Positions 97 through 34,396 of a stretch of DNA of 64,000 nt are shown here, piece after piece. A program made the position numbers and the translations under genes. The stretch is from Thermoanaerobaculia bacterium. GTDB taxonomy: Bacteria; Acidobacteriota; Thermoanaerobaculia; Multivoradales; UBA5704. Under the pieces are notes generated by a model. It was not told the origin of the DNA and ran no database searches. It worked only from the letters and a program-made list of their open reading frames with translations. Within the stretch, counting starts at the first letter, position 1. The number at the start of each line of letters is the position of its first letter. The stretch is taken from assembly GCA_036264355.1 (NCBI GenBank), contig DATARD010000080.1:14552-78551 (forward strand), given 5' to 3'.

Positions 97-1809
97 CTAA
101 TCTCTATTCCGTGACCAAGGAGCAAAACTACCAGCGAATGTCTCGGATTCTGGAATGTGGCGCCCATCGAATGAATCGGCGCCGGAGTTGTAGTACTCAC
201 GGCGAAGGCTTCGCTCCCAGTGTGTCTGAAGCAGCGAGGGTAGTGGCTCATTCGTTCTGTTTGCAATCTCAACGCCTCGCTCGAACACATCGAGGGCAAT
301 TACGCAGTAGGGGAAGGGGTAATTGTAGAGAGGATCGCCAGGATTGGTGCCCATTTCCCTCGCCAATTCACCCATTGAGTATACACCCTCACTGAGGATG
401 GTTACAAAGATAGGGGGCGAGCCACGGGTGGAATCGATTGCCTCCTGGTAGGCTCGGTACTCGGGCAGCCCTGCGTAGAGATCGGCAAGCTTTCGAGGCA
501 GCTTTCGAAGTGCTTCGTGGGAGTCGGCAAGATTCTCGCGAAGGCCCTCCTCTGTCATATTGAGGCGAGTAGTTAGAAGAATTCTCCTGCCCTTCACCTC
601 AATCAAAACTATACGTCCTAGCTCTCGGTCTATAAGCGTAAGATCCGGTCCACGCCGCTCTTCTTTGTTATAAGTAGTCTCCGGGATCACAATAAGGCGC
701 GGCAGGCGATCCTCTACGAGGCAACGGACATAAAGTTCTAGCAGAGCGCCGCGCAACTGACTATAAGGGCTGCCGAACTCGGTCAGCAAAGCATAGTCAA
801 TCGCTGCCGAGAAAGACTTCAAGAAATGGGCGACATTCGGCACTATGAATTCGTGTGCTCCGTCCTCTTTGCTCAACCGAACTATAGGATGTCGTTCTAG
901 GGGGCTAAGCCGATTGCTTATCCAGCCGAGTCGGAACTCAGGACGCTCAGAGGTGTTCTGTCGAAGCTCTGTCGTAGTGGCAGAGAAGAGTCCAAGAAAT
1001 ATCCGAAACTGCTGGTCAAACCCTTGCCAGGATGGCTGCTTTATTAGGGTACGTGTCAGCCTCTCCGGCGTGAATGCAAGGGATGGCCCGAGCAAATGAT
1101 CGTTTTGAAAAAGTGCGTTCATGATTTTCAGTTTATGATCCTGGGGATCACCGAACGCGAGCCGACTGCCGACGCACGACCTAAGCGCATTAGCCGAATG
1201 GATGTAAGCGAGAGACTGCCAGTTCATTACGGCAAAAAAGCACAATGATAGCTGAGTGATGGACGTACCTAAAAATAATTCAATCTTGGACAAGACGCGC
1301 GCGTGCTCTCCGGACAACTTATTGGAGTGTTGATGCGGGAGCGTTTCGAGGAGGGCCACTAAGCGCCCCGCCTTGTCCTTTGGTCGCGGATCTTGTCCCG
1401 GAAACTGTGTATTCGCGGTCATTGAGAGGAAAAGCTGCAACGCGAGATGGGCGCCTTCGGTTTCATTAGAGCGCATCATGCGCTTGACTGCCTGGGGATT
1501 GTCTATCATGTCCTTGCAGTCGTTAATGATACATCTCAGTATTTCCGGTGAAGGTATCGGTTCGTATTTTGGGGCAGCGTTGCTGGCAAGAATGACTTGT
1601 CCGAGGTGGCGAATGTCTTCGGGGCTGAGAAGCGGAAGAAGGAAGAGAGGATCTTCGGCCGGGGTGTACATGTCGTGAAGCGATAGACGTGCGCTGAGCT
1701 TCCAAAGAAAGTGGAGATTCGTCCGGTTCACAAGACTGCTCGCATGAGCCAGCGCAGATTCAGGAGTATGGGATCGGCGTGAACGAGTTTTGGTCCGAGG
1801 ACGCGACAT
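97..1809 (-). CDS. PD-(D/E)xK (restriction-endonuclease fold) nuclease-like protein, 570 aa, function unknown
   Basis: Intact 570-aa ORF with ATG at 1809, lying in a visibly lower-GC stretch (about 36-1820, roughly 50% by eye). Residues ~355-410 give the nuclease core: helix LLELYVRCLVED, strand RRGPDLTLID (D389), strand RIVLIEVKGRR (E404-x-K406). The N-terminal 350 aa are unrecognised. A TAGAAT -10-like box (complement of 1816-1821) sits 6 nt upstream of the ATG with no SD, so the mRNA may be leaderless. Confidence 0.75.
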   Translation of the reverse strand: MSRPRTKTRSRRSHTPESALAHASSLVNRTNLHFLWKLSARLSLHDMYTPAEDPLFLLPLLSPEDIRHLGQVILASNAAPKYEPIPSPEILRCIINDCKDMIDNPQAVKRMMRSNETEGAHLALQLFLSMTANTQFPGQDPRPKDKAGRLVALLETLPHQHSNKLSGEHARVLSKIELFLGTSITQLSLCFFAVMNWQSLAYIHSANALRSCVGSRLAFGDPQDHKLKIMNALFQNDHLLGPSLAFTPERLTRTLIKQPSWQGFDQQFRIFLGLFSATTTELRQNTSERPEFRLGWISNRLSPLERHPIVRLSKEDGAHEFIVPNVAHFLKSFSAAIDYALLTEFGSPYSQLRGALLELYVRCLVEDRLPRLIVIPETTYNKEERRGPDLTLIDRELGRIVLIEVKGRRILLTTRLNMTEEGLRENLADSHEALRKLPRKLADLYAGLPEYRAYQEAIDSTRGSPPIFVTILSEGVYSMGELAREMGTNPGDPLYNYPFPYCVIALDVFERGVEIANRTNEPLPSLLQTHWERSLRREYYNSGADSFDGRHIPESETFAGSFAPWSRNRD

Positions 1810-1822
1810 GTCGCTATTCTAA

Positions 1823-2059
1823 GGCGGGCGGCTGGGATCCTGCGACTTGATGCAACCTGGAGACTCCGCCCGCGGCGGGCGCCCGACCTGGCCGACCGCG
1901 GCCCTGGCGGCGCTGCACGCCGTGCCGGGAGGCGAAGAGGCGGTGCTCATCGGAGAAGTCCGCGCCGAGCCGGCGCGCACCGTCGTCGGCGTCGCCTCCT
2001 ACGGCGACACGAGGGTGATGGACATGCTGGTGGGGGTTCCGCTGCCGCGGATCTGCTAG
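1823..2059 (+). pseudogene. Orphan 3' fragment of hypE (last ~70 codons, no 5' part)
   Basis: The frame opens after the stop at 1820-1822 and reads ...ALAALHAVPGGEEAVLIGEVRAEPARTVVGVASYGDTRVMDMLVGVPLPRIC*. This is the typical HypE C-terminal region, ending in PRIC. GC is host-like. Its last 28 nt (2028-2055) match nt 4-31 with one mismatch. Confidence 0.6.
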
Positions 2060-2580
2060 TGTAGTGAGTCTGATATTCGGTAACGTTATGCCGTAGCGAG
2101 GCAGAACCGCCGCTCCGGCTCCCGGCCAGCCTACCTGGCGCGTCATCCACCAAGTCTGGTCCGCTGTCGACCAAGCTTGGCCTCCGCCGGACCAAACTTG
2201 GTCGACGAGGAACCAGGCCCGGTGGACGACAGACCAAGCCTGGTGGAGCGCGGACCAGGGCTGGTGAATGTCCGACCAGATCCGGTGGACGGCAGGCCAA
2301 GCCTGGCGGGTGGCGGACCAGGCCTGGTGGCTTTCAGGCCAAGCTTGGTGGAGCGCGAACCGGGACTGGCGAACGAACGACCAGAACTGGTGGGCGACAA
2401 GCCAGGCTTGGCGGGTGGCGGACCAGGACTGGTGACGCGAACCAGGACTGGTTGACGGCAGACCAAGCCTGGTGAGCGACGGGTCGTGTCCTTACTCCCG
2501 CGAGCCATCCTGAGGGCGAAGCTCGCGAGCCGCCGCGGCAAAGAATCAAACGTTACCGAACATCAGACTCACTACACTAG
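2056..2580. mobile_element. MITE-like non-autonomous element: 32-bp terminal inverted repeats enclosing a 21-bp tandem array
   Basis: Left end CTAGTGTAGTGAGTCTGATATTCGGTAACGTT (2056-2087). Right end AACGTTACCGAACATCAGACTCACTACACTAG (2549-2580). These are reverse complements with 1 mismatch in 32. No transposase lies inside. The element starts exactly at the stop codon of the hypE fragment. Confidence 0.55.
2150..2483. repeat. Tandem repeat, 16 units of 21 bp, each with a palindromic core CCA(A/G)G(C)(C/T)TGG
   Basis: Unit starts were counted at 2150, 2171, 2192, 2213, 2234, 2255, 2276, 2297, 2318, 2339, 2360, 2381, 2402, 2423, 2442 and 2463. Example units are ccaagcctggtggagcgcgga and ccaggcctggtggctttcagg. 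Confidence 0.9.
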
Positions 2581-2670: not shown

Positions 2671-3345
2671 ATGATGGTCCGCGCGATCGACGAATCGCAA
2701 CGCAAGGCTGCAAGAGTCGTGGGCTGGGCGTACCTTCTCGCCATCCTGCCCGCGGTGTTCGCCGAGGCCGTCGCATCCGCATCGAATCTCATGGCGCACG
2801 AGCGGCTTTTTCGGCTGGGCACCGCCGCCAACCTGGCCACCTTCGCCCTCGACGTGGTGCTGATCACCTCTCTGTATGTGGTCCTGAAGCCGGTCAACCG
2901 GAACCTTGCCCTGCTCGCGACGTGCTGGGGGCTGATCGAGACGGCAATCCTCATGGTCGCGACGGTGAGTGACCTGGAGGCCCTCCGAATGTTGAGTGGC
3001 GCCGACTACCTGCATGTCTTTGAAGCCGATCGGCTGCAAGCCTTGGCAAGGCTCTCGATCAGCGCGCACGGCGCCGCCTATCACGTGGGTCTGGTGCTCG
3101 CCGGGCTGCGCAGCACGGTGTTTGCCTATCTGTGGCTCAAGTCCAACTTCATCCCGAAGCCATTGGCCGCTTGGGGAGTGTTTTCGTCCCTCCTGCTGGC
3201 GGCGTGCACGTACGCCTCCATTGTCTTCCCCGAGTTGGCGAAGGTCGTCACCGTCGCCTACTACGGGGGGCCGATCTTCATTTTCGAGCTGACGATGGGT
3301 TTTTGGCTTCTGTTCAAGGAGCTGCGTCCGGCCCCGGACGCCTGA
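2671..3345 (+). CDS. DUF4386-family membrane protein
   Basis: 224 aa, multi-TM. Paralogous to the next gene, with shared blocks LYVVLKPVNRNLALLA, SGADYL and LWLKSNFIPKPLAAWGV. Confidence 0.8.
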   Translation: MMVRAIDESQRKAARVVGWAYLLAILPAVFAEAVASASNLMAHERLFRLGTAANLATFALDVVLITSLYVVLKPVNRNLALLATCWGLIETAILMVATVSDLEALRMLSGADYLHVFEADRLQALARLSISAHGAAYHVGLVLAGLRSTVFAYLWLKSNFIPKPLAAWGVFSSLLLAACTYASIVFPELAKVVTVAYYGGPIFIFELTMGFWLLFKELRPAPDA

Positions 3346-3399
3346 TCGGCACTGATTGCCGCTCACCATTCTGATGCCCTACTCGAAAGGGAGGCCACC

Positions 3400-4131
3400 A
3401 TGGCAGATCGTCCGGTTGAAACGTCGCCGCAGGTGTATGCACGAGTCGGCGGTATTCTCTATCTGATCATCATCGCCGCCGGACTTTTCGGGGAGGCCTT
3501 CGTCAGGAACAAGCTGATCGTCTCCGGCGACGCGGCGGCCACGGCGCACAACATCATGGCCTCCCAGCCGCTGTGGCGCCTGGGCCTTGCCGGCGATCTG
3601 ATCATGCACATGTGCGATGTCCCCCTGACGATGATCTTCTTTGTGCTGCTGCGACCGGTCCAGAAAAACCTGGCCTTGCTGGCGGCGTTCTTCACCTTGG
3701 TGCAGACCGCTATTTTGTGCGTCAACAAGCTGAGCCTGCTGATCCCTCTGTTCCTCCTGGGAGGCGCGGACTATCTGAAGGCTTTCGATCCCCAGCAGCT
3801 CCAGGTTCTCGCTTATCTCTCGGTCAAGATGCACGGATACGGCTTTGGCGTCGGCCTCATCTTCTTTGGCTGCGCGTGCCTCGTCCTCGGGCACCTGATC
3901 TTCAGGTCGGGCTATCTGCCGAAAGCTCTGGGGATTCTGATGCAGATCGCCGGCGTGTGCTATCTGATCAATAGCTTTGCGCTGCTGGTCGCTCCCGCGC
4001 TCACGGACATCTTGTTCCCCGCGATCATGGCCCCTGCCTTCGTCGGGGAGCTGTCCCTTTGCCTGTGGCTCCTCGTAAAGGGGGTGAATGTCCCGAAGTG
4101 GGAGGCGAAGCAGGCGCTGATGCGACATTGA
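3400..4131 (+). CDS. DUF4386-family membrane protein
   Basis: 243 aa. YLIIIAAGLFGEAFVRNKLIVSGDAAATAHNIMAS...LLRPVQKNLALLAAFF...GADYLKAF...IFRSGYLPKALGIL matches my memory of the DUF4386 consensus closely. SD GGGAGG lies upstream. Confidence 0.85.
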   Translation: MADRPVETSPQVYARVGGILYLIIIAAGLFGEAFVRNKLIVSGDAAATAHNIMASQPLWRLGLAGDLIMHMCDVPLTMIFFVLLRPVQKNLALLAAFFTLVQTAILCVNKLSLLIPLFLLGGADYLKAFDPQQLQVLAYLSVKMHGYGFGVGLIFFGCACLVLGHLIFRSGYLPKALGILMQIAGVCYLINSFALLVAPALTDILFPAIMAPAFVGELSLCLWLLVKGVNVPKWEAKQALMRH

Positions 4132-4180
4132 CAGGCTTTGAGTTGGGCGAATACAGTCGGGCTGTCGAGGGTTTGCTCCG

Positions 4181-5401
4181 ATGCCGTTGCCCGACGATCC
4201 ACACGATCCAGACACCACCCGCCTCGTCCATCTCGTCGAGGAGCTTCTCCTCGAACGCAACCGCGTCTCGGCGGACTTCTTCCCGCGGGAGAGCAGGCGG
4301 CTGGCGACGGCGTGCCAGGCGATGGCCGAGCGCTTCCTGCGCGGCGGCCGATTGCTGGCTTTTGGGCGTGGGCAGTCTGCCACGGATGCGCAGCATGTGT
4401 CCGTCGAGCTCGTCCATCCGGTGATCGTCGGCAAGCGCGCCCTGCCGGCTCTCGACCTTTCGCTGTCTCCCGGGGGGTGGATCGACACGCTCGTCCGGCC
4501 GGACGACATGGTGATGGGCTTCGGGCCACCGCAGGGTGATGCGGAAGCGGAGGAGATCCTGCGGAGTGCGCAGCGGAAGGGTGCAATGACCTTCTCGCTC
4601 CCAGGGCACGAGGGCGACTACGCCGTCGCCGCGCCGTCCGCTGATCCGTACATCCATCAGGAGCTGATCGAGATCCTCTACCACACGCTGTGGGAGACCG
4701 TGCACGTCTTCTTCGAGCATCGCGAGCGTGGCCATGAGGTGGGCGCCTCCGCGTTCCTCTATCCGTTCCTCGGACAGGAGAAGCAGGACACGCACTCGGT
4801 GATCGCCGAGGCGGCGGCGTCGATCGAGATGAAGGCGCGCGATGACGAGACGTTGCGCGAAACCATCGCGAGCGGACAGGCCGAGGGGATCGTTGCCACT
4901 GCCGTGGCGATCCGGGAGCGCGTACGGGCCGGTGGCACGATTCTCGTCTTCGGCAATGGCGGCTCGGCGACCGATGCCAACGACTTTGCGCTCGACTGCT
5001 CGGTGCCGCTCAAAGGCTATCCACCCGTGCCGGCGATCTCGCTCGCCTTGGAGCCGGCAAACCTGAGCGCTGTCGCCAACGATATTGGTCCCGAGGCCAT
5101 GTTCCTGCGTCAGCTCATCGCTCAGGCCCGGCCGGCCCCCGCTTCAGACATTGCCCTCGGCATCTCTACCAGCGGCGGCTCGGCCAACGTCATCGCCGCG
5201 CTGGGCGAGGCGCGCAAGCGTGGCCTTCTCACCGTGGCACTGCTCGGCTACGACGGCGGCGAGATTGTCCGCCGCGGCCTGGCCGATCACACGCTGGTGG
5301 TGTCCTGCGACTACATTCCGCGGATCCAGGAGGTGCAGGCGTCGATCTATCATGTTCTGCTGGATGTTCTGGGAGAGCTGCGGCATGGCGACAAAAACTG
5401 A
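4181..5401 (+). CDS. Tandem SIS-domain protein (two GmhA/DiaA-like sugar-isomerase folds; N-terminal copy degenerate)
   Basis: The N-terminal half has RLLAFGRGQSATDAQHVSVEL but lacks the S-T-S-G loop. The C-terminal half has ILVFGNGGSATDANDFALD, ALGISTSGGSANVIAAL and IPRIQEVQASIYHVLLDVL, which are GmhA-like signatures. Confidence 0.8.
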   Translation: MPLPDDPHDPDTTRLVHLVEELLLERNRVSADFFPRESRRLATACQAMAERFLRGGRLLAFGRGQSATDAQHVSVELVHPVIVGKRALPALDLSLSPGGWIDTLVRPDDMVMGFGPPQGDAEAEEILRSAQRKGAMTFSLPGHEGDYAVAAPSADPYIHQELIEILYHTLWETVHVFFEHRERGHEVGASAFLYPFLGQEKQDTHSVIAEAAASIEMKARDDETLRETIASGQAEGIVATAVAIRERVRAGGTILVFGNGGSATDANDFALDCSVPLKGYPPVPAISLALEPANLSAVANDIGPEAMFLRQLIAQARPAPASDIALGISTSGGSANVIAALGEARKRGLLTVALLGYDGGEIVRRGLADHTLVVSCDYIPRIQEVQASIYHVLLDVLGELRHGDKN

Positions 5402-17347: not shown

Positions 17348-17765
17348 GACGTGGCGGTCGTGCAGGGTGGCGTCACGGTCGCACGCAGTGGCGTGGCGGT
17401 CGTGCGCACGACCGCGATGGCCGTGCGGGCGACTGTGACCGTCGAGCGCACGGCTCTGACAGCAGAGCGGACGACGGTGAGGGCCGCGCGCGCGGCAGTG
17501 ACAGTCGTGCGTGCGACAGTGACGGTCGTACGTGCGGCAGTGACAGTCGTGCGTACGACAGTGACGGTCGTGCGTGCGACAGTGACGGTCGTACGTGCGA
17601 CAGTGACGGTCGTACGTACGACAGTGACGGTCGGGCGTGCGACGGTGAGTGTCGTACGTGCGGAGTGAGTGTCGTGCGTGCGGCAGTGACGGTCGTGCGT
17701 GCGGCAGTGACGGTCGTGCGGAAGGCTGTGACAGTCGTGCGGAGCGGCATGACCGTCGCACCGGC
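17348..17765. repeat. Tandem repeat, ~20 units of 21 bp (consensus ACAGTGACGGTCGTGCGTGCG)
   Basis: The core units from 17495 are near-identical (gcagtgacagtcgtgcgtgcg, acagtgacggtcgtacgtgcg ...). Units from 17348 to 17494 are progressively degenerate but keep the phase. The array fills almost the whole divergent intergenic space. Confidence 0.9.
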
Positions 17766-28803: not shown

Positions 28804-28858
28804 CATTGTGGAGGTTCAACGGCCCGTTGTGGAGGTTCAACGGTCCGTTGTGGAGAAG
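28804..28858. repeat. 2.6 copies of a 21-bp tandem repeat (CGTTGTGGAGGTTCAACGGYC)
   Basis: cattgtggaggttcaacggcc / cgttgtggaggttcaacggtc / cgttgtggagaag. The stop codon and last codons of the minus-strand gene lie inside copies 2-3. Confidence 0.8.
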
Positions 28859-33018: not shown

Positions 33019-33079
33019 GGCGTCACGAAGGCCCTGGTCCGTGCCGTCTCCGACTCACGCGACGTATCCGTCGGGAGGG

Positions 33080-33519
33080 CCGGACGGGAGGGAGCGCGAG
33101 CCGGACGGGAGGGAGCGCGAGCCGGACTGGAGGGAGTGAGAGCCGGACTGGAGGGAACGATAGCCGGACTGGAGGGAACGAGAGCCGGACTGGAGGGAGT
33201 GAGGACCGGACTGGAGGGAGTGAGAGCCGGATGGAGGGAACGAGAGCCGGACTGGAGGGAAGGAGGACCGGACTGGAGGGAACGAGGACCGGACTGGAGG
33301 GAGCAAGGGCCGGACTGGAGGGAGCGAGGGCCGGACTGGAGGGACCGAGAACCGGACTGGAGGGAGTGAGAGCCGGACTGGAGGGAGCGAGGACCGGACT
33401 GGAGGGAACGAGAGCCGGACTGGAGGGAACGAGGGCCGGACTGGAGGGAGCGTGAGCCGGACTGGAGGGAGCGAGGACCGGACTGGAGGGAGCGTGAGCC
33501 GGATGACGGGGAGCGAGAG
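33080..33519 (+). repeat. Tandem repeat, ~21 units of 21 bp (CCGGACTGGAGGGAGCGAGAG), purine-rich on + strand
   Basis: Units start at 33080, 33101, 33122 ... 33499. One unit (33227) is 20 nt. Every unit carries GGAGGGAG (SD-like). The last unit, ccggATGacggggagcgagag, supplies the NmrA-like start codon. Confidence 0.9.
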
Positions 33520-34396
33520 ACGGACGGTACTCGTGACGGGTGCCACGGGCCGGGTCGGACGCCTCGTGGTCGACGAGTTGTTGCGCACCGGTGTGCCTGT
33601 ACGCGCGCTCACGCGCCGGCCGGAACACGCGGCGCTCCCCGCCGGCGTCGAGGTCGTGGCGGGCGACCTCACCGACCCCGCGTCGCTCGACCCCGCACTC
33701 GAGGGGGCCGTGGCCGTGTTCCTCGTTTGGACCGCGGCACCGGCGACCGCCCCAGCCGTCGTCGCGCGGCTCGCGGAGCACCCGTCGCCGCAGCCTCGGC
33801 GTATTGTCTATCTCTCAGCACCCCACCGGACGCCGCACCCGTTCTTTCAGCAACCCAATCCGATGCGGGACCTTCATGCCGAAGTCGAGCGCCTGCTCGC
33901 GGCCACCGGTCTCGAGGTCGCGGTCCTCCGGCCGGGGATGTTCGCCTCGAACGTGCTCCACTGGTGGGCGCCGCAGATCCGGATCGGCGACGTGGTGCGC
34001 TGGCCCTACGCGGCCGCCGAGACAGCCCCAATCGACGAGCGTGACATCGCGGCCGTGGCCGCGCGCGTGCTGCTCGACGCGCGGCACGCGCGAGGCGACT
34101 TCGTCCTCACCGGCCCCGAGTCGCTGAGCCAGGCCGCGCAGGTCCACACGATCGGCGATGCCATTGGGCGGCCACTGCGGTTGGAGGAACTGTCGCCCGA
34201 CGAGTTCCGCCGCGACACGGCGGGGACATGGCCGGGCGGAGTCGTGGAGATGCTGCTTGCCGCGTGGAAGGCGACACTCGGACATCCGGCGTTCGTCACG
34301 TCCGCCGTGCACGAGATCCTCGGCTCACCACCGCGGTCGTTCCACCAGTGGGCCGCCGACCACGCAGCGGCGTTCGGCGTGGGTAACGATCGTTGA
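33503..34396 (+). CDS. NmrA-like/atypical SDR NAD(P)-binding protein
   Basis: MTGSERRTVLVTGATGRVGRLVVDELLRTGVPVRALTR (GxxGxxG Rossmann), 297 aa. The first 7 codons are a degenerate unit of the upstream array. Confidence 0.85.
   Translation: MTGSERRTVLVTGATGRVGRLVVDELLRTGVPVRALTRRPEHAALPAGVEVVAGDLTDPASLDPALEGAVAVFLVWTAAPATAPAVVARLAEHPSPQPRRIVYLSAPHRTPHPFFQQPNPMRDLHAEVERLLAATGLEVAVLRPGMFASNVLHWWAPQIRIGDVVRWPYAAAETAPIDERDIAAVAARVLLDARHARGDFVLTGPESLSQAAQVHTIGDAIGRPLRLEELSPDEFRRDTAGTWPGGVVEMLLAAWKATLGHPAFVTSAVHEILGSPPRSFHQWAADHAAAFGVGNDR

Follow-up and report, generated by a model that had tools for sequence, protein, structure and literature searches.

We report that the 525-bp element at positions 2056–2580 of the analyzed window (a stretch of DNA of 64,000 nucleotides) is probably an IS630-family MITE inserted at a rare CTAG, at the stop codon of a displaced hypE fragment, and that the tandem array in its interior is one of approximately 277 mostly non-coding arrays in this genome and probably not a special cargo. 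With its length of 525 bp and no coding capacity, the element has the size and non-coding character of a MITE. Its parts and nearest neighbors are listed in Table 1.

Table 1. Features of the element and of the adjacent genes, in window coordinates.
Feature	Position	Strand	Remarks
Left CTAG	2056–2059		TA at 2057–2058, presumed duplicated target dinucleotide; TAG at 2057–2059, stop codon of the orphan hypE
Left terminal inverted repeat, 29 nt, GTGTAGTGAGTCTGATATTCGGTAACGTT	2059–2087	+	Agrees with the IS630 left end of G003 at 24 of that end's first 26 nt
Left shell interior, element positions 33–56	2088–2111	+	Common to the C415 copy and the metagenome solo end on Ga0134124_10000038
Nested array module, element positions 57–424	2112–2479		31-nt leader or degenerate unit, then 16 units from 2143
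Right shell interior, non-repeated sequence	2480–2548	+	Pairs back onto the left shell in a single-strand fold prediction
Right terminal inverted repeat, 29 nt, IS left-end type	2549–2577	-	One mismatch to the left repeat
Right CTAG	2577–2580		TA at 2578–2579, presumed duplicated target dinucleotide
Orphan hypE 3' end (ORF 1847–2059, ending ...PLPRIC)	1879–2059	+	Shares 91% identity with the corresponding part of the intact hypE
DUF4386 membrane protein gene	2671–3345	+	Element lies 91 nt upstream of its start

A repeat search of the window identified inverted arms of 33 nt (2055–2087 and 2549–2581) that are 97% complementary, within which the terminal ends proper are complementary at 28 of 29 positions. 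The 28-nt end has just two sites in the window, the expectation from 100 shuffles being 0. A preliminary description of this DNA had given the ends as 32-nt inverted repeats; their inversion and the single mismatch stand, but the length does not, as the element's own ends comprise 29 nt and the outer CTA/TAG belongs to the CTAG target or the TA duplication. Similarly, the element had been described as filled with sixteen units, and all sixteen are present, but a non-repeat shell takes up about 56 nt at the left side and about 100 nt at the right. The other anatomical claims hold: cutting 2143–2479 into 21-mers yields 16 phased units with palindromic cores, the beginning of the element coincides with the stop codon of the orphan hypE (the TAG at 2057–2059 terminates a 70-aa C-terminal fragment of HypE), and the interior contains no credible gene, with all six frames of the array scoring negative for coding.

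The whole element is present with 100% identity on a JGI metagenome contig, and a Logan contig (SRR11836029) is 100% identical from position 2139 onward. Since these two independent assemblies agree over the stretches they cover, the element and its array are real and not an artifact of assembly. No Rfam family reaches its threshold on the element, where the sub-threshold matches are chance ones, and neither a sigma-70-like promoter nor an intrinsic terminator was found within positions 1700–2900 of the window.

The ends of the element are those of IS630-type insertion sequences. The pattern GTGTAGTGRGTCTGATATYCGGTAAC, searched for with up to three mismatches, is present in 4 of 61 related genomes, while the reversed pattern, used as a control, is present in none. 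In G003, a genome of the same genus, it forms the left end of a 1.17-kb element that is flanked by ACTAG...CTAGT and encodes a 361-aa protein. This protein scores 303 bits on the profile NF033545 “IS630 family transposase” (cut-off 100) and also matches DDE_3 and HTH domains, and the identity of its IS left end with the end of our element is accompanied by the CTAG. The same arrangement of end and transposase was observed on the Thermoanaerobaculia contig DASWQX010000375 (transposase 80% identical). G019 contains four copies of the end, localized at contig ends, and G016 contains one truncated remnant; each of them starts the same IS630 transposase reading frame. Alignment of the IS630-type ends (GTGTAGTGAGTC...) gives the shared end (CTA)GTGTAGTG.GTC.GATAT.CGGTAAC. 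The right end of the IS matches the element end over approximately 12 nt only, and hence the element has two left-type ends; that the transposase would accept such a pair is an assumption of the MITE model.

Neither the NF033545 profile nor tblastn revealed an IS630 transposase in the 8.8-Mb draft genome, which is that of an acidobacterium whose close relatives carry the label Thermoanaerobaculia or Holophagales. Its absence is unproven because the draft, which is 97% complete, consists of 424 contigs; repeated insertion sequences sit at contig breaks. The autonomous partner that the preliminary description proposed to look for was found in related genomes, as IS630 elements with matching ends, but not in the source genome itself.

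CTAG is rare in this genome, with 2,097 sites in 8.8 Mb and an observed-to-expected ratio of 0.08. It is extremely under-represented, and GATC and TCGA are nearly three-fold over-represented. The element is nevertheless flanked by this tetranucleotide on both sides, in the form C-TA-[element]-TA-G (2056–2059 and 2577–2580), and CTA/G also precedes the six intact IS630 left ends examined, the metagenome solo end and the truncated copy on C415 (see below). Tenzen et al. are said to have demonstrated in 1990 that IS630 is specific for a CTAG target. Passages in PMC6400869 and PMC2831304 describe insertion of the Tc1/mariner/IS630 group at TA. The presence of CTAG at both ends thus fits a TA duplication within the CTAG target of IS630, and the expected target-site duplication is presumably represented by this TA; CTAG being constant at all intact copies, a 2-bp TA duplication is indistinguishable from CTAG as a part of the ends. 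The element-free junction is reconstructed as ...GGATCTGCTAGCTCTCG..., with an empty site GCTAGC.

Copies of the ends, which that description proposed to count, were found both in relatives and in the source genome. The second, truncated copy, at C415:2048–2310, is 85% identical and includes left end, shell and array. It has only 9 of the 16 units, as units 5–7 and 11–14 are missing, and has lost the right shell. More diverged IS630-like ends occur on C153 and C283, where they are interrupted by an IS110-type element at contig ends. The genome therefore contains one intact copy, the truncated copy and two diverged ends, in an assembly that breaks at repeats, and a single intact copy is far below the usual copy numbers of MITEs.

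The element is a mosaic of a shell of approximately 157 bp (element positions 1–56 and 425–525) and a 368-bp array module, as the shell occurs without the array and the array module occurs without the shell. The metagenome contig Ga0134124_10000038 has CTAG followed by element positions 1–59 at 90% identity and then unrelated sequence, with no right end within 7 kb downstream. Conversely, the locus C272:67717–67819 contains element positions 57–113 at 100% identity (57 nt) and 381–424 at 91% (44 nt), has different flanks and is devoid of inverted ends. A search of public collections with shell-specific words yielded this one metagenome solo end, one chance match in Bacteroidales, and nothing in species-representative genomes. 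When 92 genomes of the family were searched with the joined flanks of the element, hypE 3' ends and DUF4386 genes were matched only separately and never as one stretch. Hence, the lack of an empty site in these genomes is explained by the junction between hypE and DUF4386 not being conserved.

An explanation that requires no mobility at all, namely, that two independent IS630 left-end remnants flank a pre-existing array or one that arose in situ between them, seems unlikely. Solo ends are indeed known (the metagenome contig, the G016 remnant, C153 and C283), arrays are ubiquitous in this genome, and neither a transposase in the draft nor an empty site was found. However, a single mismatch in 29 positions and the location of both ends in the rare CTAG would hardly be expected of independent remnants, and the reconstructed site, GCTAGC, has the perfect palindromic symmetry that a single insertion event predicts. 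Moreover, the copy on C415 has the same end, the same shell and the same junction with the array at a different locus, and so the composite has been copied as a unit at least once.

In the course of this analysis an apparent partner IS was noted at the ends of C283, C153, C192, and C193. It was rejected as a partner, since it is an IS110-family element situated about 50 nt inside IS630-like ends. This multi-copy IS (RNA-guided, DEDD), seen at C283:18251–18401, C153:2224–2374, C193:1–147, and C192:1–147, breaks the assembly, and in two of its four visible copies it sits approximately 50 nt inside the diverged IS630-like ends. Identity between the copies is 97.5% in the interior and about 65% in the flanks, a difference suggestive of targeted insertion of the IS110-family element into the family of IS630-like ends.

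For the IS630-family MITE, we infer the following mechanism and order of events. An IS630-type DDE transposase, supplied in trans, would have recognized the two 29-nt ends, both of them copies of the IS left end, and inserted the element by a cut-and-paste reaction into the TA of CTAG, duplicating the TA. The target would have been formed by the stop codon of the displaced hypE 3' end (...TGC TAG C...), so that the TAG stop was kept after the insertion. The 368-bp module of 21-bp repeats would have become nested at shell position 56/57, and the array may grow and shrink by whole units, singly (21 bp) or several at a time (105 bp, for example); the presumed cause is slippage or unequal recombination. 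Shell and array would then have been copied together at least once, giving rise to the C415 copy. The IS630-type ends in relatives, the CTAG flanks and the truncated C415 copy all support the earlier suggestion of a non-autonomous mobile element. Any present-day mobility is unproven, because the draft contains no IS630 transposase and only one intact copy of the element, and no empty site was found.

The element is surrounded by hypD, hypE, a 570-aa ORF, two DUF4386 genes, a SIS_2 gene, a glutaredoxin gene, and hypF. The intact hypE stops at window position 35. Between this stop and the orphan hypE copy, which comprises the final 180 bp of the gene (1879–2058), there is an insert of 1.85 kb (36–1878) with a low G+C content (50–55% vs. 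67%), carrying a single 570-aa ORF (97–1809, minus strand) that has no Pfam match. The segment 36–1878 has the appearance of an insertion that came with a 3' end of hypE to replace the original one. Downstream of the element, two tandem DUF4386 paralogs and a double-SIS-domain gene (2671–5401) lie between hypE and the glutaredoxin gene, which is followed by hypF; this DUF4386/SIS insertion is thus localized inside the hydrogenase maturation cluster.

The array itself (2143–2479) consists of 16 units in register, contiguous and head-to-tail, each of 21 bp except one of 20 nt (2416–2436), with a degenerate unit directly upstream. TRF reports a period of 21 (13.2 copies) and a higher-order period of 105 bp (2.1 copies, 81% matches), i.e., a duplication of five units. 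The unit cores are 12-bp near-palindromes of the ACCARG/CYTGGT type, and CCA-N4-TGG is found in 13 units; the commonest core is ACCAAGCCTGGT, while ACCAGGCCTGGT and ACCAAGCTTGGT are perfect palindromes. Two other readings of such an array were discarded. Firstly, it is not a CRISPR array, as the units are contiguous and no spacers separate them. Secondly, methylation sites of the Dcm type were dropped because CCWGG is not avoided in the genome.

We consider it highly improbable that the region is a gene whose repeats encode a heptad-repeat protein (e.g., GPGLVxx on the plus strand). The period of 21 is a multiple of three, and open frames of 92 aa (plus strand) and 132 aa (minus strand) run through the array, but at 67.5% G+C long open frames are expected by chance; open-frame length was therefore uninformative as a coding test and was replaced by a codon-usage gene call. 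The codon log-likelihood is negative in all six frames across the array, with values between -0.13 and -0.41 per codon; even the 5th percentile for called genes is higher (-0.02). The starts of the ORFs are TTG codons inside the repeat, and the same position outside genes is typical of the whole class of arrays to which this one belongs.

Application of TRF to the whole genome, with rows counted at a minimum of four copies, yielded 228 rows at period 21 and 74, 19, and 13 rows at periods 42, 63, and 126, respectively; no other period has more than 25 rows. After merging, these form 277 loci that occupy 73 kb, or 0.8% of the genomic DNA, with an average of about one locus per 32 kb. According to a crude codon-usage gene call, which covers 76% of the genome, 230 of the 277 loci (83%) are wholly outside called genes. 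Of the 30 loci inside called genes, those with period 126 appear to be coding repeats. The gene contexts of the array loci are convergent in 54 cases, tandem in 99, and divergent in 38, and hence there is no strong 3'-end bias. No conserved flanks common to all arrays were found, only family-specific ones. Among the 252 arrays with enough flanking sequence, the one considered here is alone in having a strong flanking inverted repeat (score 30 vs. a control maximum of 20). In 400-kb samples of related genomes, periods of 20 and 21 and their multiples were observed in G003 from the same genus and periods of 21, 42, and 84 in G010 from the same family, whereas G043 from another family has a single period-21 array. 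Our search of the literature found no description of this class of 21-bp arrays.

Three other arrays of the 21-bp class are present in the window, at 17393–17741, 28806–28855, and 33075–33525. Separately, a family of 22-bp arrays (TCCCACTCTCAGCCGCAGAGAG) has about 19 dispersed copies, e.g., C122:1263–1468 (13 kb upstream of the window), C373:3130–3344, and C124:8832–9002. Its copies have conserved flanks of approximately 100 nt, with ...GGCTATACTTCGGTCCGGCCGG... on the left and ...CCGCAGTGCTCG..GATCGTTCCGG... on the right, and the copies may represent mobile elements or, alternatively, RNA genes that enclose an array.

The unit sequences of the 21-bp arrays are diverse, many being unrelated between loci. 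A perfect stem of at least 5 bp is present in 35% of the unit consensus sequences, compared with 10% of shuffled units. About ten loci share the ACCA..TGGT family of units, and in this family the paired variants ACGA..TCGT and ATCA..TGAT occur above the level of within-locus shuffles. These data bear on the proposal of the preliminary description that the 16 palindromic units, spaced two helical turns apart, constitute a functional protein-binding scaffold (centromere-, iteron-, or nucleoprotein-like) carried as cargo by a mobile element. The strict phasing at 21 bp, the 12-bp near-palindromic cores and the recurrence of a 20–21-bp period across the family agree with a scaffold, and so does the pairing of symmetric core positions in the ten sister arrays, which exceeds that in within-locus shuffles (for pairs 3 and 4, the observed level was reached by 0 of 2000 shuffles). 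However, the re-phasing of the units favors pairing in this test, mismatched hybrids of half-sites occur about as often as compensated ones, and nearly two-thirds of the consensus sequences fall short of the above stem. Further, a single sequence-specific binder is insufficient for some 277 arrays that share the period but often not the sequence, and no partition, replication-initiator, or other DNA-binding gene adjoins the element. Finally, the array module is known without the inverted ends (C272) and the ends are known without the array (the metagenome contig). A purpose-built protein-binding cargo is thus not upheld, and we regard it as quite improbable, although the array class as a whole might have some binding function.

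One speculative idea is that the arrays, far from being passive minisatellites, depend for their formation or upkeep on a trans-acting system specific to the lineage. Such a system would measure about two helical turns and could be an activity that adds or copies units, or a protein filament reading the units in register; on present data, this idea is rather unlikely to be correct. If it is true, array modules with defined ends (2112–2479 and its twin on C272) would be seeded into new DNA, the interior of transposons included, and the MITE would be a natural, datable case of array seeding and of co-mobilization by an IS630 transposase.

Irrespective of this, the genome-wide class of 21-bp arrays is a more interesting question than the element itself. 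The MITE exhibits an array module with discrete ends that is able to sit in foreign DNA, and the change by whole units between copies that are 85% identical makes the birth and turnover of arrays measurable. From the practical standpoint, such arrays, along with insertion sequences, break the draft assemblies of these soil bacteria. The element itself would extend IS630-derived MITEs to Acidobacteriota, and in it a BOX-like layout, with transposon ends around a variable tandem array, would have arisen independently.

Among known systems, plasmid centromeres and iterons resemble the array in having tandem units of about two helical turns with a palindromic core in each. In the F plasmid, for example, sopC is made up of 12 tandem units of 43 bp that each contain a short inverted repeat, and R6K has 22-bp iterons. 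In contrast to these, the arrays considered here are chromosomal, occupy hundreds of loci, have no par or rep genes adjacent to them, and differ in unit sequence from locus to locus. An assignment of our array to this type was rejected, since no partition or replication genes are situated nearby.

The REP, BIME, and REPIN elements, which are mobilized by RAYT tyrosine transposases (PMC2817692, PMC3116915), also are intergenic short palindromic units that often cluster at regular spacing. Here, the units are head-to-tail rather than alternating, there are hundreds of unrelated unit sequences, and the bias in gene context is weak. Mobilization by a RAYT was rejected, as the RAYT-like gene of this genome (C243:12037–12378) is flanked by a different, unrelated palindrome, CCCAGGGTTAAAACCCTGGG, and no 21-bp array was found near any of the genome's five matches to Y1 transposases. 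The locus of this gene (C243:11500–13100) is a classical REPIN-RAYT arrangement in an acidobacterium, with the RAYT-like Y1 transposase gene (94 bits on PF01797) and REP-like palindromes GCACCTAGCCCAGGG.TT.A.CCCTGGG... on both sides. The same REP-like palindromes adjoin several arrays elsewhere in the genome.

IS630-derived MITEs are represented by RUP and Nezha, the latter being linked to IS630. The element shares with them its small size, the lack of coding capacity, the ends that copy those of the IS630 family, the TA-type target, and the presumed mobilization in trans. RUP of Streptococcus pneumoniae, with a length of 107 bp, has inverted ends like those of IS630-Spn1 (PMC3049150), and Nezha of cyanobacteria is cited in a passage of PMC10969869. 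Its nested tandem array of 368 bp makes our element five times longer than RUP. The element further differs from these MITEs in that it has one intact copy and two left-type ends, and in that the partner IS is seen only in related genomes.

The layout of the element, with short tandem modules in variable number (here, 16 vs. 9) between end modules whose termini are complementary, is that of the pneumococcal BOX elements. BOX is composed of boxA, a variable number of tandem boxB modules, and boxC (PMC3049150). The resemblance is in the layout only. The unit of 21 bp is shorter than the boxB module, which has approximately 45 bp. Another difference is that the internal module of our element belongs to a genome-wide class of stand-alone arrays that normally have no end modules. 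Thus, the closest known systems are IS630-derived MITEs such as RUP by mechanism and the pneumococcal BOX by layout.
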